A stretch of DNA of 64,000 nt from Alphaproteobacteria bacterium (GTDB lineage Bacteria; Pseudomonadota; Alphaproteobacteria; UBA828), in NCBI GenBank assembly GCA_963667705.1, contig OY763937.1, forward strand, positions 1,354,948-1,418,947. Reading direction: 5' to 3'. The notes beneath the pieces are model-generated. The model was not told the DNA's origin. It saw nothing but the letters and a program-made list of their open reading frames with translations, and searched no databases. How positions within the stretch are numbered: position 1 is the stretch's first letter; each line of letters starts with the position of its first letter. Below are positions 13,995-36,456 of the stretch, one piece after another. The translations under genes and the position numbers were made by a program.

Positions 13995-15329
13995 ATGAAA
14001 CCTCCATCCGCCAAACGCGTCGCCCGCGTCAAGCTCACACTGACCAAGCGCGCCGTCCAGGCCATGACCCCCGGCGACAAACCGTGGATCGCATGGGACG
14101 ACAAGCTCACCGGATTCGGCGTCCAGGTTCACCCCAAAGGTGCCAAGTCGTTCCTCGTCAATTACCGCACCGGCGGCGGCGGTAGGAAGGCGCCCAACAA
14201 GCGCGTCGTCCTCGGCCGTTTCGGCAGGCTCTCGGTCGCCGAGGCCCGGAGAATGGCACACCAGGCCCTCGGCAAGGCCGCCGGCGGCGACGATCCGGCA
14301 GTGAAGCGCGCCACTGCGCGCGTCATGCCCCTGCTGGAGGCCATGCCCCTGCTCGAGCAGGCCTTCGAGGACTACATGAAAGTCAACCCCAAGCGGGCCG
14401 AGAGAACGAACAGGATGTACCGCGCCGAGTTCGCGAACTGCCTCGGCGACTGGCGCAGCCGTCCCCTTGATTCAATCCAGTGGCGCGACGTGGAGGAGCG
14501 TTTCTTCCGCCTCACCCGCGACCACGGCTGGGCCGGGGCCAACCGCGCGATCGCCCTGCTGCGCTCGGTCTACCGCCGGCCCTGCGTCGACATCGAGGGC
14601 CTGCATAATCCGGTCGATCTGTGGCTCGCCGGCGGCGGCGAGTACCATCGCCCGAGGCGGCGCAAGATCTCGAACCCGGCCGAGGTGCTGCCGCTCTGGC
14701 GGGCCGGGATCGAGGCCGTGGTGGTCACTCCCGCGTCGCGCGACGCCTTCTTCTTCGGGCTCTACACCGGCATGCGCGTCCAGGAGGTGCTGCCGCTGCG
14801 CTGGGAGCGCATCGACATGGAGGGCCTTTCCTTCCGGGTCGACGAGACCAAGACGGGCGAGCCGCTGGAGCTTCCCGTCACACGCCAACTGGCCACCCTC
14901 CTCGCCCGCCGCCGGGCGGAGAGCGAGGAGCTGCGCGGCAATCTTCGGGACTGGGTGTTCCCGTCCACCGTGAGCGGCTCCGGCCACGTCGCCAACCTGA
15001 GCCATCTCTATGCCAGGATCGGCGCGGCCGGCGGTGCGAAGTTCTGGTACCACGGCCTGCGCAACGCCTTCATCACCGTGGCCGAGCGCGACCTTCTGCT
15101 GCCGCGCACCCTGACCAAGCGTCTGGTCAACCACGCCCGGCCGGGCGACGTCATCGAGGGCTACGCCGCCGACTGGACCGTCGGGCAACTGCGGCGTCCC
15201 GCGCAACTGATCGCCGACCGCATCGAGGCGCTGATGAACAGCAGCACGCCGGACCAGGCCACTACGACGGCGGCCGCAACAGCCCCCGCCGACGCCGATG
15301 CCGTGGTGCGCACGGAGGCGACATCGTGA
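13995..15329 (+). CDS. Tyrosine-type site-specific integrase (DUF4102/P4-like N-terminal arm-binding domain)
   Basis: The N-terminus (LTKRAVQAMTPGDKPWIAWDDKLTGFGVQVHPKGAKSFLVNYR) is the DUF4102 integrase signature. The C-terminal catalytic region has WYHGLRN...GY. Confidence 0.85.
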   Translation: MKPPSAKRVARVKLTLTKRAVQAMTPGDKPWIAWDDKLTGFGVQVHPKGAKSFLVNYRTGGGGRKAPNKRVVLGRFGRLSVAEARRMAHQALGKAAGGDDPAVKRATARVMPLLEAMPLLEQAFEDYMKVNPKRAERTNRMYRAEFANCLGDWRSRPLDSIQWRDVEERFFRLTRDHGWAGANRAIALLRSVYRRPCVDIEGLHNPVDLWLAGGGEYHRPRRRKISNPAEVLPLWRAGIEAVVVTPASRDAFFFGLYTGMRVQEVLPLRWERIDMEGLSFRVDETKTGEPLELPVTRQLATLLARRRAESEELRGNLRDWVFPSTVSGSGHVANLSHLYARIGAAGGAKFWYHGLRNAFITVAERDLLLPRTLTKRLVNHARPGDVIEGYAADWTVGQLRRPAQLIADRIEALMNSSTPDQATTTAAATAPADADAVVRTEATS

Positions 15330-26979: not shown

Positions 26980-28338
26980 ATGGACATCCAGGACCTAATC
27001 ATCGACGACCGGAAGCGCGGGGTCTTCAGGGTCCATCGGTCGTGCATGACTTCCTCCGATTTGTTCCAGCGGGAACGCGAACTGATCTTCAATCGATGCT
27101 GGATCTACCTGGGACACGAATCGGAGGTGGAAAGGCCCGGAGACTACCGCCGCCGCACGATCGCTGGCCGGCCGCTCTTCTTTGTTCGCGGCAAGGACGG
27201 TCGGATACGGGTGTTCCTCAATACCTGCCCGCACCGGGGTGCCATGATATGCCGCCGCGATGCCGGGAATGCCCAAGTTCTGCGGTGCTTCTATCACGCC
27301 TGGACTTTCAACACCTGCGGCGAGCTGATCGGCGTTCCCAGAAGAGAGGCCTATGGCCCCGACTTCGACCCGAGCGAACTCGGCCTTAAAGAACCGCCCC
27401 GGGTGGACAGCTACCGGGGCTTCTACTTCGTGAGCTTCAACGCGCAGGGCGAAGACCTGGTCACCTACCTGGCGGGGGCCAGAGACTACCTCGACCTGGT
27501 CGTCGACCAGGCCGAGGAAGGTATGCGGGTGATTCCCGGTTCCAGCAAGTACGCCATGAAGGCCAACTGGAAGCTGCTGGCCGAGAACAGTCTCGATGGA
27601 TACCACCTGATCCCGACACATCGGACCTACGTAGACTACATGACCGGTCTCGGGACGGACGACAGCGGGGACACGCTGGCCGCCCGTCCCCCCGGCGCAG
27701 GGAAGGCCCTGGGCAAGGGCCACTGCGTGTCGGAGAACATAGCCAGAAACGGCCGTCCCATCGCCCGCTGGCACCCGATATTCGGCGAGGAGGCCAGGGA
27801 GCGCATAGCGCGCGTGCGCGAGCGCTTGGTGCAGAAATACGGAGAAGAGCGCGCCTACCGGATGGCCGACACCTCTCGAAATCTGCTCATCTATCCGAAC
27901 CTGCTGATCATGGACTTCGTGGCTATCAGCATCAGGTATATCGAGCCCCTGTCACCGGACAGAATGGAGGTCACGGCCTGGCATCTCGTGCCCAGAGAGG
28001 AATCGGGCGCGGTGCTGGCCGCCCGACTCGACAGCTACCTGACCTTCCTCGGACCGGGCGGCTTTGCCACACCGGATGACGTGGAAGCGCTGGAATCCTG
28101 CCAGGCCGGCTTCCGCGCTACCGAAGCCGAGTGGTCCGACATTTCGAGAGGCATGCTGACGCCCTCTCCAGGAACGGCAGATGAGCTCCAGATGCGGGGA
28201 TTCTGGCGGCAGTGGCACGCGAACATGCAGGGCCTGAATACGACCGACGTACAGGATGGGCAGCCCGGAACATCGCAACCCGCAGCGGCTTCTTCGGAAG
28301 CTGACGACCCTGGGCACTGTCGGACCGGCGAGCGATGA
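26980..28338 (+). CDS. Rieske non-heme iron ring-hydroxylating oxygenase, alpha subunit
   Basis: Rieske motif CPHRG...CFYHAW. Mononuclear iron ligands are in DGYHLIPTHRTY. Confidence 0.85.
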   Translation: MDIQDLIIDDRKRGVFRVHRSCMTSSDLFQRERELIFNRCWIYLGHESEVERPGDYRRRTIAGRPLFFVRGKDGRIRVFLNTCPHRGAMICRRDAGNAQVLRCFYHAWTFNTCGELIGVPRREAYGPDFDPSELGLKEPPRVDSYRGFYFVSFNAQGEDLVTYLAGARDYLDLVVDQAEEGMRVIPGSSKYAMKANWKLLAENSLDGYHLIPTHRTYVDYMTGLGTDDSGDTLAARPPGAGKALGKGHCVSENIARNGRPIARWHPIFGEEARERIARVRERLVQKYGEERAYRMADTSRNLLIYPNLLIMDFVAISIRYIEPLSPDRMEVTAWHLVPREESGAVLAARLDSYLTFLGPGGFATPDDVEALESCQAGFRATEAEWSDISRGMLTPSPGTADELQMRGFWRQWHANMQGLNTTDVQDGQPGTSQPAAASSEADDPGHCRTGER

Positions 28339-28829
28339 CGGCCGACAGCAGATGCGCGTTGCGGGCGACGGTCGAGGAATTCCTGTTCAGGGAAGCGGCA
28401 CTTCTGGATGAATGGAGGCTGGAGGAGTGGGTTGATCTGTTTACGGACGACGCCCGGTATGTGGTTCCCTCCACGGATTTGCCGGAAGGGGACCCCGGGC
28501 GCGATCTGGTGTTCATCGACGACGATATCATCCGTTTGCGCGCCCGGGCGGCGCGCTTGAACAGCCGCTATTCCCACCGCGAGCGCCCGCGGTCGCGAAC
28601 CCGCCGCTTCGTTTCCAACGTGCGCGTCGAAGAAACCGACGAGGGACACCTGTCGGTCTCCGCAAACGTCCTCGTCTACCGCTTCCGCAGCGGCGAGGGA
28701 GCGCCCTACGTCGGCGCCATTGAGTACGTCCTGAGGAAGGACGGCGGCGACCTGAGGATAGCGTATCGCCGCGCGGTGCTGGATCTGGAGGACCTCTCCT
28801 GGCACGGTGCGGTGAGCATCATCTTTTGA
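28335..28829 (+). CDS. Ring-hydroxylating oxygenase beta subunit (NTF2/SnoaL-like)
   Basis: ATGA overlap with the alpha subunit. EEFLFREAALLDEWRLEEWVDLFTDDARYVVP is the beta-subunit signature. Confidence 0.8.
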   Translation: MTADSRCALRATVEEFLFREAALLDEWRLEEWVDLFTDDARYVVPSTDLPEGDPGRDLVFIDDDIIRLRARAARLNSRYSHRERPRSRTRRFVSNVRVEETDEGHLSVSANVLVYRFRSGEGAPYVGAIEYVLRKDGGDLRIAYRRAVLDLEDLSWHGAVSIIF

Positions 28830-29108: not shown

Positions 29109-29381
29109 ATGGAAGACCTGAAGGTGCGCAAGCTCCGTGAGAAGCTGGGAATCTCCGCCGAGGACCAGAGGGCAGCAGAAGGTAAGGCAATCAGCCCGAA
29201 TCTGCGGCAGAAGATCCCGGGCCATCCGGAGACAGGCGGCAATTTCGTCTCGGCGCCGTCCGCGGTGGCGGCAGGCCATCCGGGGACAGGCGGCAATTTC
29301 GTCTCGGCGCCGTCCGTGGTGGCGGCAGGCCATCCGGGATCAGGCGGCAATTTCGTCTCCGCGCCGTCCGTGACCGATTAG
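29109..29381 (+). CDS. Candidate RiPP precursor peptide: leader + 3 tandem 18-aa Cys-free Gly-rich core repeats
   Basis: GAGGTG Shine-Dalgarno before the ATG. Leader MEDLKVRKLREKLGISAEDQRAAEGKAISPNLRQKIP, then GHPETGGNFVSAPSAVAA / GHPGTGGNFVSAPSVVAA / GHPGSGGNFVSAPSVTD. It sits directly upstream of a radical SAM/SPASM gene. Confidence 0.6.
   Translation: MEDLKVRKLREKLGISAEDQRAAEGKAISPNLRQKIPGHPETGGNFVSAPSAVAAGHPGTGGNFVSAPSVVAAGHPGSGGNFVSAPSVTD
29220..29381 (+). repeat. 3 x 54-bp near-perfect tandem direct repeats (coding the core repeats of the precursor)
   Basis: ggccatccgg[a/g]gacaggcggcaatttcgtctcggcgccgtccg[c/t]ggtggcggca repeated with 2-4 mismatches. The third copy ends at the stop codon. 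Confidence 0.85.
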
Positions 29382-29650
29382 GCGGCGGCGGGAAGTCGCC
29401 TGCTTCAAGGGTCTGTTGCCTGCCCCTGAAGCTGGAGAGGCTTGAGGGAGTTACCGGCTTTCGCGGACGAAACGGTCGCCCGACGGTCGTGCGGCGCGCG
29501 CGCCGGGCGACCCGAGGCAGGCAGGCGGGCGCATGCCTCGAAGGAAGCGCGGTATCGTTCCCCGAAGACGGCCGCTGCCACGCTTGAGTTCGCCGCATCG
29601 CCGGGGCACGCGTTCAATGCAAGCCTCGACGGTCCGTTATTTGGCAGCAA

Positions 29651-30892
29651 TTGCCCACATGCGACGGCGGCACATTCGAGCTGACTCCAATGACCTCAGC
29701 GATGCAAGACTCGAAGACACTTGTCGCCACTGATAGAAGGACAGTGAGCTTCCGCAAACTCCAAACGCTGGAAGTCATATTGAAGATTACCGAACGCTGT
29801 AACTTGGATTGCGACTATTGCTATTTCTTCAACGCGGGGGACGACAGCTACAAGAGTCATGCGGCCTTCATATCAAATGACACGGTCGTACTTCTGGTGC
29901 AGCGGCTCAGGCAATTCTCCGAAGAGCACGAACTCCGGCGCATAGCGATTCACCTGCATGGCGGCGAACCGCTTCTGATGCCGAAGGCCCGGCTCGACAG
30001 TATCTGCGATGAGATCAGCTCTGGTCTGGCAGACATCGTCGACCTGTCGCTGACAATCCAGACCAACGGAATGCTGATCGACCTCGAGTGGATAGAGATT
30101 TTCAACAGACATGGCGTGGAGGTGGGTGTCAGCCTCGACGGGACGCAGGTGCACAACGACGCCCATCGTCTCGATCATCATGGCAGGTCGTCATACCAGG
30201 CGACCGTTCGCGGTCTGGCGCTGTGTCGGGAGCACCTGCATCGGTCTCCCATGGTCCTGGCCGTGATCGGGGAGAATTTCGATCCCAAAGAAATCTACGA
30301 ACACTTTCGACGTGACCTGCACGTGGGGCACATCGACTTCTTGCTCCCCGACCTGAACCACGACAATTTCGGTGGCGACGCGGAAGCGTACGGAGATTTC
30401 CTCATCGAGATTTTCGACATGATGGTGAATGACGAGGAGGCTGTAAGTGTCAGGTTCATCGATCATTTTCTGGCGCGAATCTACGGAAGCGGAAATTTTC
30501 TTTTCGCTACCGGGAGAGATGACCCGGACTATCTTCTGCTTACGGTATCGTCTGATGGCGGAGTCGGGCCGGACGACACGCTGAGATCCACGAAGTACTG
30601 GAGTGGATACGAATACAGGGATCTGAAGAGTTCCAGCCTCGAGGAAATCATTCAGGATCCATTGTTTCACGAATTCGAGTATTTCAAGAAGACACCTGCA
30701 TCTGCGTGTTCGGATTGCTGTTGGCGTGACGTCTGCGGCAGTGGTCAGCCGGTACACAGATATGCGAGCAGCAATGGATTCGACAACCCCACCGTCTATT
30801 GTGAAGGATTGGACAGGTTCTACACCCATGTGTTGAAATATTTAGCCTTGCACGGCGAGCCGTTGGAAAAGATCGGCGCGGACCTGATCTGA
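29651..30892 (+). CDS. Radical SAM enzyme with C-terminal SPASM domain (putative RiPP maturase)
   Basis: CNLDCDYCYF is a CxxxCxxC rSAM cluster. C-terminal CSDCCWRDVCGSGQ...YCEG is a SPASM-type Cys cluster. GC about 55%, below the backbone. The start could also be the ATG at 29690 or 29702. Confidence 0.85.
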   Translation: MPTCDGGTFELTPMTSAMQDSKTLVATDRRTVSFRKLQTLEVILKITERCNLDCDYCYFFNAGDDSYKSHAAFISNDTVVLLVQRLRQFSEEHELRRIAIHLHGGEPLLMPKARLDSICDEISSGLADIVDLSLTIQTNGMLIDLEWIEIFNRHGVEVGVSLDGTQVHNDAHRLDHHGRSSYQATVRGLALCREHLHRSPMVLAVIGENFDPKEIYEHFRRDLHVGHIDFLLPDLNHDNFGGDAEAYGDFLIEIFDMMVNDEEAVSVRFIDHFLARIYGSGNFLFATGRDDPDYLLLTVSSDGGVGPDDTLRSTKYWSGYEYRDLKSSSLEEIIQDPLFHEFEYFKKTPASACSDCCWRDVCGSGQPVHRYASSNGFDNPTVYCEGLDRFYTHVLKYLALHGEPLEKIGADLI

Positions 30893-30952
30893 GACGGTCG
30901 ACATGCTCGTGGCCTGCAGCATGGGGGCCCTTATGAATCGAGGCAATTCGCG

Positions 30953-31699
30953 GTGGCAACGCGTTTCCGCCCCGGTGCCGCCAAGTCTTCCATGAGAATC
31001 TACGTTGACCGCAGACTGGGTGATGTGGACGACGTGATTTCGTTCAGCGAAACGCTCGTCTATGCGCAAGAGTCTTATCCGGACGCTGTCGACTATCGAC
31101 CTAACGCAAGGTTGCCCGTCGACTTCCGAAGGCTGGATGAACTTGAGGTCGAAGAATACACCGCCTCTCTGGACGCGCTGACGATCGAGGACGAACTGGA
31201 CTTTGTTGCACTCTTCCCTTGCGATTTGAATTCCGAGAGTGAATTGGACTTCACGCCATTTCTCAGCCTGTCACCGGTTGTTGCGCTCGACCCTTCCATC
31301 GATCATGGGAATCATCCTTCGATTACGGTGGATCGCGAATCGGGTCTGAGGTTGGGGTTGCACCTCGACACATGGGATGGACTCGACGTGTCCTCGAGGT
31401 GGAAAAGCCGGAACCGGGTAGTCGTCAACAGGGGACCTGGAGACAGGCATGTCTATGTGGTACCTGTGCCGATCGAAGAAATGGCAGAGTGCGTGGCGTC
31501 ACCGGAACGCCTCCATCCCTGCGAAGTTGCCGACACATATATCCGGAATGGGCGGGGTATTCCCTGTTTGCGCATGCTCCAGTCGGCGAACGTCGCGTAC
31601 GTCTGCTGTACGGAGCGTCTTGTTCACGATGCGCGCGTGAGTCCAGGCGGCATCCGAGCGGAAAGCCGCCATTACCTGGGGCACTTCGTCAAGAATTAG
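30953..31699 (+). CDS. Hypothetical acidic protein downstream of the rSAM (possible RiPP-associated)
   Basis: 248-aa ORF in the same orientation, with an acidic N-terminal half. No recognisable family. Start is uncertain (GTG at 30953 or ATG at 30992). Confidence 0.4.
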   Translation: MATRFRPGAAKSSMRIYVDRRLGDVDDVISFSETLVYAQESYPDAVDYRPNARLPVDFRRLDELEVEEYTASLDALTIEDELDFVALFPCDLNSESELDFTPFLSLSPVVALDPSIDHGNHPSITVDRESGLRLGLHLDTWDGLDVSSRWKSRNRVVVNRGPGDRHVYVVPVPIEEMAECVASPERLHPCEVADTYIRNGRGIPCLRMLQSANVAYVCCTERLVHDARVSPGGIRAESRHYLGHFVKN

Positions 31700-31803: not shown

Positions 31804-32103
31804 CTATCCCGGACGACCCGTCCTCCACTCCCATGGCCGAACCTGAACGTCGGCGAAGACGTCCGCCTTGCCGTAGGGGCTGTCGGCCAGGAAAGCGCGC
31901 ACCGCCTCGAGAGAAGGCGCTTCTGCGATCAGGAGCAGGCCGACGATGGTCTCCGAGTCGTCGGAGAGGGTCGGGCCGGCGTTATGGACGACGACGCCGG
32001 GATGTTCGGGATGATTTCGCAGATAGTCCATATAGGCGCCCTGAATCTCGCTGCCCGACTCAACCCGTCCCGGCTTGTGAGTAACGAAAGCGACGACGTA
32101 CAT
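31804..32103 (-). CDS. YciI-like (Dabb-fold) protein
   Basis: MYVVAFVTHKPGRVESGSEIQGAYMDYLRNHPEHPGVVVHNAGPTLSDD...GLLLIAEAPSLEAVRAFLADSPY matches the YciI family. Confidence 0.7.
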   Translation of the reverse strand: MYVVAFVTHKPGRVESGSEIQGAYMDYLRNHPEHPGVVVHNAGPTLSDDSETIVGLLLIAEAPSLEAVRAFLADSPYGKADVFADVQVRPWEWRTGRPG

Positions 32104-32234: not shown

Positions 32235-34001
32235 CTACATACCTCGGGCAATCCTCGCCCCCGGCCGCTCCACACGGACGGTCACGATGTCTGTGTCGTG
32301 GTACTGCTGATGGCGGACGGAGGAGGCGAGGTGACGCAGCAGCCGCAGGGAGACTTCCCGCTCGATCATCGCGCCGGCGCTGGCCTCGCCCAGCAGCGCG
32401 ATCCGGTCCTGAATGTTCTCCTCGCCTTTCGAGGCGACGAACTCCAGCACGGCTCCGCCGTCCTCGCTGCGCGCGGTAAGAAGCAGACGCCGCCGCTCGC
32501 TGTCCCCACCGGGCTCGTCCTGTAGCTGCAGCGTCAGCAGCGTCTCTTCGCAGACGGCGTCGAGGCGGTCCATCATTTGCGCATCCCAGCCTCTTCGCGA
32601 TGCGAATGCGCCGATGAACGTGCGGATCTCGTGCAGGGCAGAGGGATCGAACGCCACCTCGATCCGGCGGCGGCGCGGCTTCGTCAGCTCGACCAACATG
32701 GTCATCACGATCGCCACGATGCCTCCGGTCAGCATCCCGTTCTTCAGGAGAGCGCCAGCGAACGCCGAGACATGCTCGGGAAAGATCGCCTCGCTCTGGA
32801 AGCCCACGCCGACCCAGAACGAAACCCCGGCGATCAGGCCTTTGCGGTAGTCGATCCCGTCCTGAATGATCACTCTCATGCCGATGATGAAGATCGTCGC
32901 CATCGTGACGCCGACGAACGCAGTGATGACCGGACCCGGGATGGCAAGGATCACGGCAAGCGCCTTGGGAACGAACGCCAGCACGATAAACACTGCCCCG
33001 AGCGCGAGGCCGATCCGGCGAGAGCTGATCCCGGTGACCTCGACCATGGACGCGCCCGTCGGCCGGAAGCCGAGCGGCATCGTGCCCGCCAGGCCCGACA
33101 GCAGGTTGCCCACACCGTCGGCGGCCACGGCGCCCTGCACCGCCCGGAAGTCCACCGCCCGGCTCTCGGCCCACGAGACGCGCTGGATCGCGACTGCGCC
33201 GCTGATGGTTTGAATCGTGCAGACCAGGGCGATGAACACGAAGGCGGGAAGCAGCGCCCAGAAGTCGGGCGCGAAATGCAGGTCCAGGGCCGACCATTCG
33301 GGCGTCGGAATACCGATCCACGAGGCCTGGACGATGCGGTCGACGTCGTAGAGACCGAACACGCCCGCGACGAACGAGCCCGCGACGATTCCGATGACCG
33401 GCGCCCACAGGCGTACCCGTCCCTTTGCCGTCAGCGCGATGCCGACGATGACGACCAGGGTCGCCGCCGCGCTGAGCGGGGCGGCCAGCGGCGGCGTGCC
33501 GCTCGGTACATTCTTCAATTGGTCGAACATTACCGGCATGATCGTCACCGGAGTGAGCATCAGGACCGTCCCCGTGACGGTCGGCGTGAGGACGCGCCGG
33601 AACAGCGACAGGCGTGCGGAGAAGACGAACTGGACCAGGGCGAGGGTAACGACCAGGGTCGCGAGCAACGCCGGGCCGCCCGCGGCGAGGGCGGCGATGC
33701 TGACCGCGATGGAAGCCCCGGACGTTCCGATCGCAAGGATGTAGCCTGCGCCGAACCGGCCGATCTGCCGCGCCTGGAGCATCGCGGTCGCGCCGCAGAG
33801 CGCGACGGAAGCGAACACGGCCCACAGCAGAACTTCCTCGGGTTGGCCGGCCGCCCTGAACACGACTGTCGGAATCATCACCGCGCCTGGCAGGACCAGG
33901 CAGGCAATCTGCAGGGCGAGGCCCACGCTGAGCGGGACCGGGATCTTCGCGTCGGGATGGCGGCGGCCTTCGGTGCGCCGATCGGACTCGTCGAGTCCCA
34001 T
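32235..34001 (-). CDS. APC-superfamily (NCS2/xanthine-uracil-permease-like) transporter with about 150-aa C-terminal cytoplasmic extension
   Basis: About 12 hydrophobic helices. Nucleobase-permease-like segments (LSVGLALQIACLVLPGAVMIPTVV; PGPVITAFVGVTMATIFIIGMRVI). Soluble C-terminal domain. The start is taken at the internal ATG (MGLDESDRR). Confidence 0.55.
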   Translation of the reverse strand: MGLDESDRRTEGRRHPDAKIPVPLSVGLALQIACLVLPGAVMIPTVVFRAAGQPEEVLLWAVFASVALCGATAMLQARQIGRFGAGYILAIGTSGASIAVSIAALAAGGPALLATLVVTLALVQFVFSARLSLFRRVLTPTVTGTVLMLTPVTIMPVMFDQLKNVPSGTPPLAAPLSAAATLVVIVGIALTAKGRVRLWAPVIGIVAGSFVAGVFGLYDVDRIVQASWIGIPTPEWSALDLHFAPDFWALLPAFVFIALVCTIQTISGAVAIQRVSWAESRAVDFRAVQGAVAADGVGNLLSGLAGTMPLGFRPTGASMVEVTGISSRRIGLALGAVFIVLAFVPKALAVILAIPGPVITAFVGVTMATIFIIGMRVIIQDGIDYRKGLIAGVSFWVGVGFQSEAIFPEHVSAFAGALLKNGMLTGGIVAIVMTMLVELTKPRRRRIEVAFDPSALHEIRTFIGAFASRRGWDAQMMDRLDAVCEETLLTLQLQDEPGGDSERRRLLLTARSEDGGAVLEFVASKGEENIQDRIALLGEASAGAMIEREVSLRLLRHLASSVRHQQYHDTDIVTVRVERPGARIARGM

Positions 34002-34377
34002 GCCTGATCCCCGTTGCCTGCGGAGAGCGCAGCGACGACCGCCATGCATCGTCGCGGACGCGTTCGCCGCTCACATTCAACGGCAAACGCACCTGCTCCG
34101 CAAAGGAACGCTGGCCGTGGAGCATCGATAGGTTGTTCTCGAGCGACCGAAGTCTTCTGGCGGGTGTATTGGCTGGTATCCCTGGAGGTGGTGTAAGGCG
34201 TTGGGGTGGACAAATTGGGATGCCCGAAACCCGAAGCCCCTTGGTGTTCTGCGCGTTTAGGGAGTCACGGCCAGCCGGAATCCCCGAACTCGACCGCGTT
34301 GAGCCGGGCCGGACGGAAGGTCGACGATGCTGAAGGACGCCGCCGGGTGTACTCCCCGGGACGGGGGCGATTCCCGA

Positions 34378-36456
34378 TCAGGCGATGGCGCGTTCCAGGC
34401 GGACCTCTTCCACCCTGTAGGGCACGTCGGCGATGGCGCCGGCGTCGAGCTCGCGGGCGAAGCGGTGACCCTCGTAGACCGCGTGCTGGATCGTCCCGGC
34501 GGCAACGCAGTCGCCGACGCGTGCGAGGGTCCTGATCCCGGCCGCCTCCAGCGTCTCCGGCGCGGCCGAGAGCTCGCGATAGAGCGCGTCGTTCGGCAGC
34601 CGCGAGGTGGCGAGAACCAGCGACTGGTAGGAGAGGTGCCGCCGCGTCTCCTCGTGATAGACGTTGTAGATCTCGATGCTGTTGTCGCCGATGTTGGCGA
34701 TGTTGTGGTCGGTGATGAGCTCGATGCCCAAGGAGAGGACCCGGCTCATGATCTTCTCCATCTCGAGCGTGTATTCGGTCCAGCGCGAGAGCTCCATCAG
34801 CGGCGTGACGATGGTCACCTCGTGGCCGGCGGCGCGCAGCTTCTCGGCGATGACGCCGCCCATGTAGTAGTGGTCGTCGTCGAACACGACGATGGGGCCC
34901 TCGAGCTCCGTCCCGCCCATCACGTCGTCGGGCGTGAAGACCCTGCGCCCCTCGCTGCCGGGGATCGCATGGGCGTTGGTATAGGCGACGCCGTCGCCGC
35001 GCCAGCGGGACCCAGTCGCCATGACGACGGTCTCGGCGCCGTAGTCGAGCACGTCCTGCGCCGAGAGGCGGGTGCCGGTGTGAACTTCCACGTTCTTCAT
35101 CTTCGCGATCTGGCTCACGCGCCAGTCGCGCACCCGCCCCCACGTGGCGAGGCCGGGCAGCGCGCTCTCCCGCGTCACGCGGCCGCCGACCTCGGGCTCC
35201 GCCTCGACCAGGTGGACCGTGTAGCCGCGCTGGCCGAGGGCGCGGGCGCACTCCAGCCCCGCGGGGCCGGCGCCGACTACCAGCACGCCGTCGTCCGATC
35301 CCTTCGCCTCGATGGTCTCCGGATGCCAGCCGCGCCGCCACTCCTCGCCCGCGGTCGGGTTCTGCGTACAGCGGAAGAGGCTGACCGTGTTCTCGGAAGC
35401 GACGCACATGTTGCAGCCGATACACTCGCGGATGTCCTCGTTGCGACCCTCCTCGATCTTCGCCGGCAGGAAGGGGTCGGCGATGGAGGGGCGCGCGGCG
35501 CCGATGAAGTCCGTCACGCCGCCATTGATCTGCGCGATCATCGTGTCGGGCGAGGTGTAGCGCCCGACCGTCACGACCGGCCGGTCGGTCTTCTGCTTGA
35601 CGAAGGCTACGTAGGGTTCCTGGAAGGCCTCGTCGGCGAAACGTGAAGTGGCGGAATCCTGGGCCCAGTCGCTGATGTTCACGTCCCAGAGGTCGGGCAG
35701 GTCCGAGAACATCTCGACCACCGCCTGGCCTTCCTCCTGCCACCTGATGCCGTGCTCGCCGCGGTTCTCGTCGACGGCGAGCCGGAGCGCGACCGCCGCC
35801 TTGTCGCCGACCGCCTCCTTGGTGTCCTCCAGCAGCTCGCCGATCAGGCGCGCGCGGTTCTCGACGCTGCCGCCGTACTCGTCGGTGCGGTGATTGGTGT
35901 GGGGCGAGAGGAAGTGCTGCGGCAGGGCGATGTCGTGGGCGGCATAGACGTAGACGATGTCATAGCCGACGTTGACCGCGCGCTGCGCTGCCTCCACCTG
36001 CCAGCGTCGGAATTCCTTGATGTCCGCCTTGTCCATCTCGCGGCCCATGATCGGGTCCCAGTTGTAGTGGACCGTGGCGGGCGAGGGGCCGAGCGGGAAC
36101 TCCTTGGTCTTGCGGTTGGAGAAGCCGGTCCCGTTGTGGACCAGCTCCACGGCCGCGAGCACGCCGTATTCGTGCATGGTGTCGACCCAGCCGCGCAGCT
36201 GCTCGGCGTAGTAGTCGTTCCACAGCCGGCGCTCGCCGTAGGGCGCAGCGCAGGAGGTGGGATGGATGCTGCACTGCTCGGTGGAGATGACGGCCCATCC
36301 GCCCTGGGCCTTCATGCGCCGATGCGCGACGTCCCCGTGGTGCTCGGTGTATCCCATCGCGTTGCAATGGGGCACCTGATAGAAGCGGTTCTTCGCGATC
36401 TTGGGGCCGATCTTGATCGGCGTGAAAAGCACGTCGTAACGGGGGTCGCGCGCCAT
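34378..36456 (-). CDS. TMADH-like (OYE TIM-barrel FMN + 4Fe-4S + FAD/NAD-binding) flavoprotein oxidoreductase, paralog 1
   Basis: N-terminal old-yellow-enzyme block (FTPIKIGPKIAKNRFYQVPHC). Fe-S Cys cluster CIGCNMCVA...C. C-terminal dinucleotide fold (VLVVGAGPAGLECA). Length 692 aa, typical of trimethylamine/dimethylamine/histamine dehydrogenases and N-methylproline demethylase. Confidence 0.85.
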   Translation of the reverse strand: MARDPRYDVLFTPIKIGPKIAKNRFYQVPHCNAMGYTEHHGDVAHRRMKAQGGWAVISTEQCSIHPTSCAAPYGERRLWNDYYAEQLRGWVDTMHEYGVLAAVELVHNGTGFSNRKTKEFPLGPSPATVHYNWDPIMGREMDKADIKEFRRWQVEAAQRAVNVGYDIVYVYAAHDIALPQHFLSPHTNHRTDEYGGSVENRARLIGELLEDTKEAVGDKAAVALRLAVDENRGEHGIRWQEEGQAVVEMFSDLPDLWDVNISDWAQDSATSRFADEAFQEPYVAFVKQKTDRPVVTVGRYTSPDTMIAQINGGVTDFIGAARPSIADPFLPAKIEEGRNEDIRECIGCNMCVASENTVSLFRCTQNPTAGEEWRRGWHPETIEAKGSDDGVLVVGAGPAGLECARALGQRGYTVHLVEAEPEVGGRVTRESALPGLATWGRVRDWRVSQIAKMKNVEVHTGTRLSAQDVLDYGAETVVMATGSRWRGDGVAYTNAHAIPGSEGRRVFTPDDVMGGTELEGPIVVFDDDHYYMGGVIAEKLRAAGHEVTIVTPLMELSRWTEYTLEMEKIMSRVLSLGIELITDHNIANIGDNSIEIYNVYHEETRRHLSYQSLVLATSRLPNDALYRELSAAPETLEAAGIRTLARVGDCVAAGTIQHAVYEGHRFARELDAGAIADVPYRVEEVRLERAIA

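Follow-up and report, generated by a model that had tools for sequence, protein, structure and literature searches.

The locus described here lies in a 64,000-nucleotide stretch of contig OY763937.1 (hereafter the window), assigned to an Alphaproteobacteria bacterium of the UBA828 lineage, and comprises three consecutive genes on the forward strand: one for a precursor peptide with three tandem core repeats, one for a radical S-adenosylmethionine (rSAM) enzyme, and a third open reading frame (ORF3). We conclude that this cassette is probably a biosynthetic cluster for a ribosomally synthesised peptide with post-translational modifications (RiPP) of the triceptide class, in which the rSAM enzyme would cyclise the core units and ORF3, a putative oxygenase resembling MicC, would cut the peptide at a Gly-Gly site. 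An earlier interpretation of this DNA from its letters alone (the sequence-only reading) had proposed a Cys-free repeat precursor accompanied by an rSAM maturase that installs C-C crosslinks. This core claim is supported by the similarity of the enzyme to the YhhB, XyeB and FxsB families, by ChlB as its best structural relative, and by the adjacency of precursor and enzyme genes at 24 of 24 loci.

The precursor gene (29109-29381, +) encodes 90 residues and was recognised by its open frame, its homologues, its position upstream of the rSAM gene, and a Shine-Dalgarno sequence, GAGGTG, that ends 4 nt 5' of the ATG. The only array reported by Tandem Repeats Finder (29220-29372, +) comprises the core units and their linkers, with a period of 54, 2.8 copies, 94 % matches and a score of 265, and both the frame with its Shine-Dalgarno sequence and the three tandem, near-identical 54-bp repeats had been correctly noticed in the sequence-only reading. 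By a six-frame pattern scan, the peptide GGNFVSAP, which contains a candidate Gly-Gly cleavage site and an F-V-S motif, was located at 29235-29258 (core unit 1), 29289-29312 (core unit 2) and 29343-29366 (core unit 3), all on the forward strand, and no further copy exists in the 64-kb window.

A search covering 5.8 billion proteins recovered 95 clusters of precursor homologues sharing a conserved leader (consensus MEDLKVRKLREKLGIS..DQ..A.GKA.SPNL..KI) and core; the exact sequence of the window precursor has no database record. The core logo, built from 264 units of 91 precursors, reads [A/S/T]-G-G-N-F-[V/I/L]-S-A-[P/A], with both Gly residues and the Ser at 100 % and the Asn and Phe at 98 % or above. 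Each precursor holds one to five units (mode three), spaced by 10, 11, 16 or 22 residues, with linkers and C-terminal tails that are variable, and 24 of the 91 terminate exactly at ...SAP. The three repeats are therefore as first described, but the conserved unit is [AST]GGNF[VIL]SA[PA] and not the 18-residue GHP...VAA that had been delimited from the window alone. Of the crosslink partners suggested at that time, the Phe fares well by its conservation, whereas the His of "GHP" falls in the variable linker, is not conserved among the homologues, and was rejected as a partner for this reason.

At the level of DNA, 57 units of GGNFVSA in 26 loci are written in 42 distinct 21-mers using all synonymous codons, which indicates that selection acts on the peptide and that its conservation is not due to chance. 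The alignment of the window repeats with those of a second locus (L001) revealed positional orthology and a few genome-specific shared changes, so that concerted evolution of the repeats is at most weak; a strong form of it was rejected, since orthologous repeats retain their positional identity between the two. The copy number, one to five, clearly differs between lineages.

None of 27 tested precursors was matched by any NCBIfam or Pfam model, and a dedicated comparison of the same 27 with the Gly-rich-repeat, Xye and Fxs precursor models gave no match at E <= 1; the search of NCBIfam models for rSAM-associated peptides that the sequence-only reading had recommended hence assigned the precursor to no described family. 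In addition, a literature search on GGNFVSA and NFVSAP returned no relevant paper, and among the sponge cyclophane literature searched, no paper describes the GGNFVSA motif. Four database precursors (P0196, P0206, P0210 and P0214) shift midway into the +1 frame, e.g. ...GRQFRLCAVRGR..., and either represent frameshifted copies or result from misassembly of the repeats.

The rSAM gene (29702-30892, +; 396 aa) encodes a predicted peptide maturase of the triceptide synthase type, as judged from NCBIfam and PDB matches and from its conserved Cys residues. Its open frame reaches back to TTG 29651, with ATG 29690 as an alternative start, but the lengths of its homologues (391-396 aa) make ATG 29702 the most likely one. 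The CX3CX2C motif CNLDCDYC occupies residues 33-40, does not vary among the 56 close and the 61 distant homologues compared, and is accompanied by a PF04055 score of 59 bits (cutoff 29.5); the CxxxCxxC signature noted earlier is hence genuine, but the SPASM-type C-terminus proposed along with it is only partial, as the Pfam SPASM model (PF13186) gives 19.4 bits (E 0.0013) where 21.5 are needed. The protein has no Cys at all between residues 175 and 336, and the C-terminal group C336/C339/C340/C345/C367 displays only a CX2CX5C...C pattern, in which C336, C339, C345 and C367 are conserved in rSAM homologues and align with Cys residues of ChlB, and C340 occurs only in the close family. The same reduced pattern is found in ChlB and in XyeB-like relatives. 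C102, which is conserved in 98-100 % of close and distant homologues, is possibly an auxiliary-cluster ligand. An N-terminal RiPP recognition element domain would not fit, since the radical SAM domain begins near residue 26.

With regard to curated NCBIfam models, the enzyme scored best against the cyclophane-forming maturases YhhB (287 bits, cutoff 445), XyeB (277, cutoff 450) and FxsB (265, cutoff 370), in alignments spanning nearly the full models, and lower against the anaerobic sulfatase-maturating enzyme model (anSME, TIGR03942; 153, cutoff 349), GrrM/OscB (TIGR04261; 117, cutoff 310) and AmcB (104, cutoff 425). Its best solved relative is the rSAM domain of ChlB, a characterised triceptide synthase (9GM3; E 6e-50, 32 % identity, residues 26-379), compared with E 1e-18 for an anSME structure. 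The family is sharply bounded: approximately 60 clusters share 66-93 % identity and the next relatives stand at 41 %. These next relatives (~40 % identity) are XyeB-like, with 300-333 bits and still below the cutoff, and are encoded in canonical RiPP clusters, alongside Phe-repeat precursors, a peptidase of the S9 type and an exporter of the C39-ABC type. Judged by its sequence, the rSAM belongs within the triceptide-synthase clade but in none of its named families. It is not of the GRRM type to which the locus had been likened: membership was rejected because the enzyme falls below the TIGR04261 cutoff and the precursors miss the Gly-rich repeat model.

Triceptide synthases join an aromatic residue to the C-beta two positions on, within omega1-X2-X3 motifs (PMC11499958), and MscB, a member of the FxsB family, bonds Phe-C4 to Ser-C-beta on F-x-S (PMC11002830). 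The F-[V/I/L]-S of our core units, with invariant F and S and a variable middle residue, fits this pattern. In the pathway that we favour, the leader would guide the rSAM to the precursor. By homology with these enzymes, the rSAM would quite likely abstract a hydrogen from the Ser C-beta, and this carbon would then be bonded to the ring of the Phe located two residues upstream. Each unit would thereby acquire a single Phe-Val-Ser cyclophane (-2 Da), in the manner of MscB on F-x-S.

ORF3 (30992-31699, +; 235 aa) has an open frame reaching GTG 30953, but most likely starts at ATG 30992, as its homologues are 235 aa long. Neither singly nor as a family of 34 did it match any Pfam or NCBIfam model, and we assign it to the MicC family from a profile match. 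MicC, an alpha-ketoglutarate (alpha-KG)/Fe(II) enzyme formerly annotated as hypothetical, is encoded in the triceptide cluster for minviopeptin; its iron is held by the triad H160-D162-H253, and R188 and K266, which anchor the C5-carboxylate of alpha-KG, are both essential (PMC12912966). When a profile of 34 ORF3 homologues was run against all PDB sequences, the sole match was 9VKM_A, which is MicC (E 4.6e-7), and a 135-residue MicC fragment in turn matched the distant relatives found with the ORF3 profile at E 1e-34 to 1e-20. The ORF3 family thus represents a divergent branch of the MicC family. Its close homologues form 98 clusters at 60-100 % identity, the exact sequence being matched elsewhere on one 1.6-kb contig only, and a profile search of 1.84 billion representatives yielded 1018 relatives, typically 260-290 aa long, unannotated in Pfam and NCBIfam, and matching ORF3 residues ~100-232.

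The predicted iron ligands of ORF3, H124, D126 and H212, fall on H180, D182 and H273 of the 9VKM chain in the HMMER alignment, which are MicC H160, D162 and H253 only if a 20-residue N-terminal tag offset is assumed; under the same assumed numbering, R152, the predicted 2-oxoglutarate-binding residue, aligns with the essential R188 of MicC, and Y203 with Y244, with K266 lying beyond the aligned region. At H124, D126, R152, Y203 and H212, neither the 34 close nor the 144 distant relatives vary, and the residues near-invariant in the distant ones are G122, H124, D126, R142, N146, G148, R152, Y203, T207, H212 and D213. The fold of ORF3 is a double-stranded beta-helix with KdoO among its top Foldseek matches, a likeness also published for MicC; 9VKM was not among the best 50 matches listed from the PDB. 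Furthermore, seven of the 144 top relatives are 578-994 aa long (P0316, P0379, P0408, P0422, P0431, P0448 and P0451), and in P0316 (994 aa), P0379 (718 aa) and P0408 (687 aa) the MicC-family domain lies C-terminal to an rSAM that passes the GrrM/OscB cutoff. These fusions independently connect Gly-rich-repeat cyclophane systems with the MicC-type oxygenase family, which has ~1000 members and is covered by no Pfam or NCBIfam model.

MicC cleaves its triceptide precursor at Gly8 (HAS|GGFTKDL), and a G8A variant remains uncut (PMC12912966). The core units offer a comparable site, because the layout [AST]|GG-N-FVS shares with S|GG-FTK a small residue, a Gly-Gly and a Phe cyclophane motif, with one extra Asn in our family, and the Gly-Gly after A, S or T next to this motif is invariant in all 264 units. 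By this analogy, and with a chance that we place slightly short of even, ORF3 would hydroxylate the C-alpha of the first Gly in [A/S/T]-G-G, whereupon the N-C-alpha bond would break, so that the small residue before this Gly would end in a C-terminal amide and the next fragment would begin with a glyoxylyl group. Such an oxidative cut would free the precursor of its leader, and perhaps the units from one another, with no need for a peptidase. It would explain the invariance of both Gly residues, the lack of a conserved peptidase near the cassette (no peptidase gene is common to the flanks of the 24 loci), and the tight coupling of the oxygenase gene to the rSAM gene, which it overlaps or follows within ~10 nt at L005, L007, L012 and L013. 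The sequence-only reading had suspected the ORF at 30953 of taking part in leader removal, which agrees well with a MicC-family oxygenase, MicC being a protease-like enzyme. Its remark that no transporter or peptidase is visible holds for the latter, as no peptidase is shared, but not for the former, as a conserved NCS2 permease adjoins the cluster.

Several points weigh against a triceptide pathway with oxidative cleavage. The proposed crosslink is, like the proposed cleavage, derived from homology and from analogy between motifs. The rSAM stays under the curated cutoff of every named model of enzymes that form three-residue cyclophanes (3-CyFEs), and the homology of ORF3 to MicC is detectable only at profile level and over the C-terminal 130 residues; the N-terminal 100 have no counterpart, and K266 of MicC falls outside the alignment; the Foldseek matches of ORF3 in the PDB are likewise weak (best E 8e-3). 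MicC requires prior ADP-ribosylation of its substrate, and its authors expect functional diversification among its homologues (PMC12912966); no ADP-ribosylating enzyme was found at the window locus. Moreover, three loci (L002, L010 and L011) keep the Gly-Gly with no ORF3 homologue within 10 kb, hence the Gly-Gly is not maintained for ORF3 alone, and cutting at every Gly-Gly would generate products of 9-21 residues across species.

In a scan of one genome per GTDB species, the rSAM was detected at 66-93 % identity in 24 species, all of them represented by metagenome-assembled genomes (MAGs), with the precursor directly upstream in 24 of 24 and the oxygenase directly downstream in 21 of 24. The sequence-only reading had named a small ORF without homologues beside rSAM genes elsewhere, and an rSAM clustering with anSME, as observations that would count against it; since the precursor is adjacent at all 24 loci, and ChlB far outscores anSME, the opposite was found for both. 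According to their record titles, the carriers are Gamma- and Alphaproteobacteria, Rhodospirillales, Pseudomonadales, Binatia and Thermodesulfobacteriota (labels as given). Several of their isolate names (SB06xx_bin, RHO, COS and Plut) point to sponge or coral hosts, RHO, COS and Plut being prefixes that we take to denote such hosts. The SB06xx bins are MAGs from the sponge Ircinia ramosa (PMC11706023; PMC7883664).

Host GC across the 24 loci ranges from 43 to 67 %. In high-GC hosts the segment of rSAM and oxygenase lies 5-10 GC points under its flanks, and in hosts of 43-46 % GC it is level with them. In the window, GC over the rSAM gene and ORF3 is 52-56 % against 65-72 % in the surroundings, as had been noticed early on, and GC at third codon positions (GC3) drops to 0.67 in the rSAM gene and 0.64 in ORF3 compared with 0.90-0.93 in backbone genes. 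The latter are a cytochrome P450 gene (25352-26608, +) and a gene for an old yellow enzyme (OYE)-like FMN/FAD oxidoreductase (34378-36456, -; 692 aa), which flank the island; they are not kept beside the cassette at other loci and are therefore probably host backbone. Both the GC offset and the GC3 dip support horizontal spread, for which we also counted the rSAM identity that stays at 66-93 % across differing phylum labels. This suggests that the three-gene cassette spread horizontally among sponge- and coral-associated bacteria.

Two further loci deserve mention with respect to mobility. At L002:11200-14900, where the rSAM is 89 % identical to ours, there is no MicC-like gene and no long ORF downstream of the rSAM, and an integrase-like fragment is found at 14172-14867 (-); this arrangement may reflect cassette decay or rearrangement. 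At L026:5404-12874, a cluster that encodes two rSAM enzymes along with a peptide of 68 aa, a peptidase of the M61 type and an S9-like hydrolase stands beside a phage-type integrase and a DUF5906 gene, and this cluster may be carried on a mobile element. Within the window, regulatory signals were sought as well: the 320-nt spacer between precursor and rSAM gene, folded in search of an attenuator, had no structure beyond shuffled controls (z-score -0.21), an Rfam scan of 26-35 kb at gathering thresholds gave no match, and a promoter scan found no promoter-like sites, nor terminator-like sites above shuffled controls.

Four neighbouring genes accompany the cassette. Upstream lie the alpha (26980-28338, +; PF00355 and PF00848) and beta (28335-28829, +; PF00866) subunits of a Rieske ring-hydroxylating dioxygenase, the alpha subunit being BenA/anthranilate-like (best NCBIfam model BenA, 306 bits against a cutoff of 781; GC3 0.78). 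Downstream lie a YciI-like gene (31804-32103, -; 99 aa; PF03795) and an NCS2 permease of the xanthine/uracil type (32235-34049, -; 604 aa; above the cutoff of NCBIfam NCS2_1), in which PF00860 spans residues 44-416. The remaining C-terminal extension of the permease (~190 aa, ~417-604) has no Pfam match and is kept in homologues of ~600 aa at other loci. Within 10 kb of the rSAM gene, the Rieske pair occurs at 14 of the 24 loci, in four arrangements of order and orientation, the YciI-like gene at 19 and the permease at 20, and all of them also at L028. Beyond a TRAP transporter (nine loci) and genes restricted to one subgroup of related loci, nothing else recurs in the flanks.

These neighbours raise the possibility that the cluster exceeds three genes and that all four of them contribute to the pathway, for instance by oxidising the aromatic ring and by exporting or importing the product. 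Their recurrence despite shuffled order and orientation speaks for it, as do the poverty of other shared flank genes, neighbour identities to the window that track those of the rSAM, and GC3 values of 0.75-0.81, intermediate between cassette and backbone. However, there are Rieske pairs 74-78 % identical to ours that no rSAM, cupin, YciI or permease gene accompanies, as is the case for all relatives at 53-64 %, and eight low-GC loci (L015-L022) carry the cassette without a Rieske pair. Enzymes of the BenA/anthranilate type, YciI proteins and NCS2 permeases are moreover typical of small-molecule catabolism and uptake, and a terminator-like hairpin closes the beta-subunit gene, even if such sites did not exceed shuffled controls. 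An obligate linkage of Rieske pair and cassette was rejected, given metagenome loci with the pair alone. Overall we regard an extended pathway as unlikely and, from these sequence comparisons, say only that the Rieske pair, the YciI-like gene and the permease travel with the cassette, without claiming a joint function.

A bolder version we consider improbable: a protease-free multi-core pathway on an island that would pass from phylum to phylum within sponge and coral holobionts, cutting at every Gly-Gly to free the leader and to give one to five copies of a short, C-terminally amidated, glyoxylyl-capped Phe-Val-Ser cyclophane peptide that the Rieske, YciI and NCS2 proteins would modify further or transport. 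If true, such a modification or transport of the peptide would be unprecedented for RiPPs.

The main rival to oxidative cleavage keeps the triceptide cluster but makes ORF3 a tailoring hydroxylase, acting on the Asn at its beta position, like FIH or AspH, or on Val, Pro or Phe, and leaves the leader to unlinked host peptidases. The high conservation of the Asn (98 %) right beside the cyclophane motif would suit such an activity, and so would the distant kinship of ORF3 with MicC, the functional diversification regarded as probable among MicC homologues by those who described it, and the three loci that retain the Gly-Gly without ORF3. On the other hand, MicC is the only characterised sequence relative of ORF3 and its catalytic residues are conserved in it, the small residue and Gly-Gly correspond to the site that MicC cuts, and no conserved peptidase is found near the cassette to do the work instead. 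We thus hold a tailoring role to be rather unlikely and prefer the cleavage of the Gly-Gly site by ORF3.

Different chemistry by the rSAM, such as linkage at another position, a C-O or C-N bond, or epimerisation in place of the Phe-Ser-C-beta cyclophane, seems quite improbable. It would be in keeping with an enzyme that scores below all named cutoffs and whose identity to characterised or neighbouring families does not go beyond 32-41 %, and with the diverse chemistry seen in its clade, for example in WprB (C-gamma) and DarE (ether). Yet the invariant F at position i and S at i+2, separated by V, I or L, are what an omega1-X2-X3 motif predicts, and F-x-S is the proven substrate motif of the related MscB. 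Finally, a non-RiPP locus, in which the rSAM would be an anSME or another SPASM enzyme and the small repeat ORF non-coding or unrelated, could appeal to the 153 bits of the anSME model and to the many sulfatases of sponge symbionts, but is effectively refuted already by that score lying far under its cutoff and well under those of the cyclophane models, by the far better match to ChlB, by the missing first half of the SPASM Cys motif, and by a small-ORF peptide that is conserved, always adjacent, across genomes of 43-67 % GC.

Taken as a triceptide cluster, the locus would be an unannotated and well-populated addition to that class, with ~60 rSAM, 95 precursor and 98 oxygenase clusters for whose precursors and oxygenases no NCBIfam or Pfam model exists. 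It also provides a natural test of whether oxidative Gly cleavage of the MicC type is a general substitute for leader peptidases, on a substrate that is simple for this end, since its repeats are identical and it is without ADP-ribosylation. For activity tests, synthesis or expression of the short invariant core GNFVSAP would be easy. Furthermore, the occurrence of the cassette in several sponge and coral MAGs under different phylum labels, and with atypical codon GC, suggests that the trait is shared horizontally and could be of importance in the holobiont.

Among known systems, the closest in plan is the mic cluster of Mucilaginibacter inviolabilis, which encodes the precursor MicA, the rSAM MicB, the oxygenase MicC and the ADP-ribosyltransferase MicD (PMC12912966; PDB 9VKM); triceptide clusters with a MicC-type partner were described in 2026 for Bacteroidota and Actinomycetota (PMC12912966). 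Both systems pair a cyclophane rSAM with a MicC-family oxygenase whose Fe triad and essential Arg are conserved, both place a small residue and Gly-Gly just before the Phe cyclophane motif, and both lack a peptidase. In contrast, ORF3 is distant from MicC, matching it by profile and over the C-terminal half only, MicB is PasB/daropeptide-like whereas the window rSAM is XyeB/YhhB/FxsB/ChlB-like, and the window locus lacks an ADP-ribosyltransferase. The precursors differ as well, one to five near-identical units here as opposed to three different motifs in mic, and so do the hosts: MAGs from sponges and corals, with the labels Proteobacteria and Binatia, stand here against Bacteroidota and Actinomycetota.

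From the side of the rSAM, the FxsB family (MscB, ChlB) comes near in two respects: F-V-S is an instance of the F-x-S motif, and ChlB 9GM3 is the closest solved structure, aligning over nearly its full length with the same four C-terminal Cys. The FxsB model is nevertheless missed by the score of 265 against 370, no hydroxylase domain of the HExxH type accompanies the window rSAM, and the window precursor does not have the FxSxx-COOH layout that we take to characterise FxsB-family precursors. XyeB and YhhB (TIGR04496, NF041707) give the top curated scores, in near-whole-model alignments, but these are far under the cutoffs, and characterised members act on Trp, Tyr and His motifs with a basic residue or Asn at X3. 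GRRM systems similarly place a Gly-containing repeat precursor next to a cyclophane rSAM, and MicC-family domains are fused to GrrM-type enzymes; the GrrM score of 117 against 310 and the precursor without an NCBIfam match set our locus apart.

Among the nearest outside relatives of the rSAM is also that of a Nitrospirillum cluster, in which a precursor ending ...GGDFDLSFDLSFDLSFDLSFDLSFS (L025:5710-5934, +) lies directly upstream of the XyeB-like rSAM P0072 (39 % identical to the window enzyme), followed by an S9 peptidase, a HlyD-type protein and a C39-ABC exporter. Its Phe-repeat precursor upstream of the rSAM recalls the window, but it has a classical peptidase and ABC exporter, no MicC-like gene and another repeat motif, and it looks like another uncharacterised Phe-repeat triceptide family. 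As far as its sequence allows us to say, then, the window locus shares with triceptide synthases and with the MicC family their structural and contextual features: the class, triceptides, is already known, and what is new is the precursor family, the 3-CyFE subfamily and the divergent MicC subfamily that it brings together.

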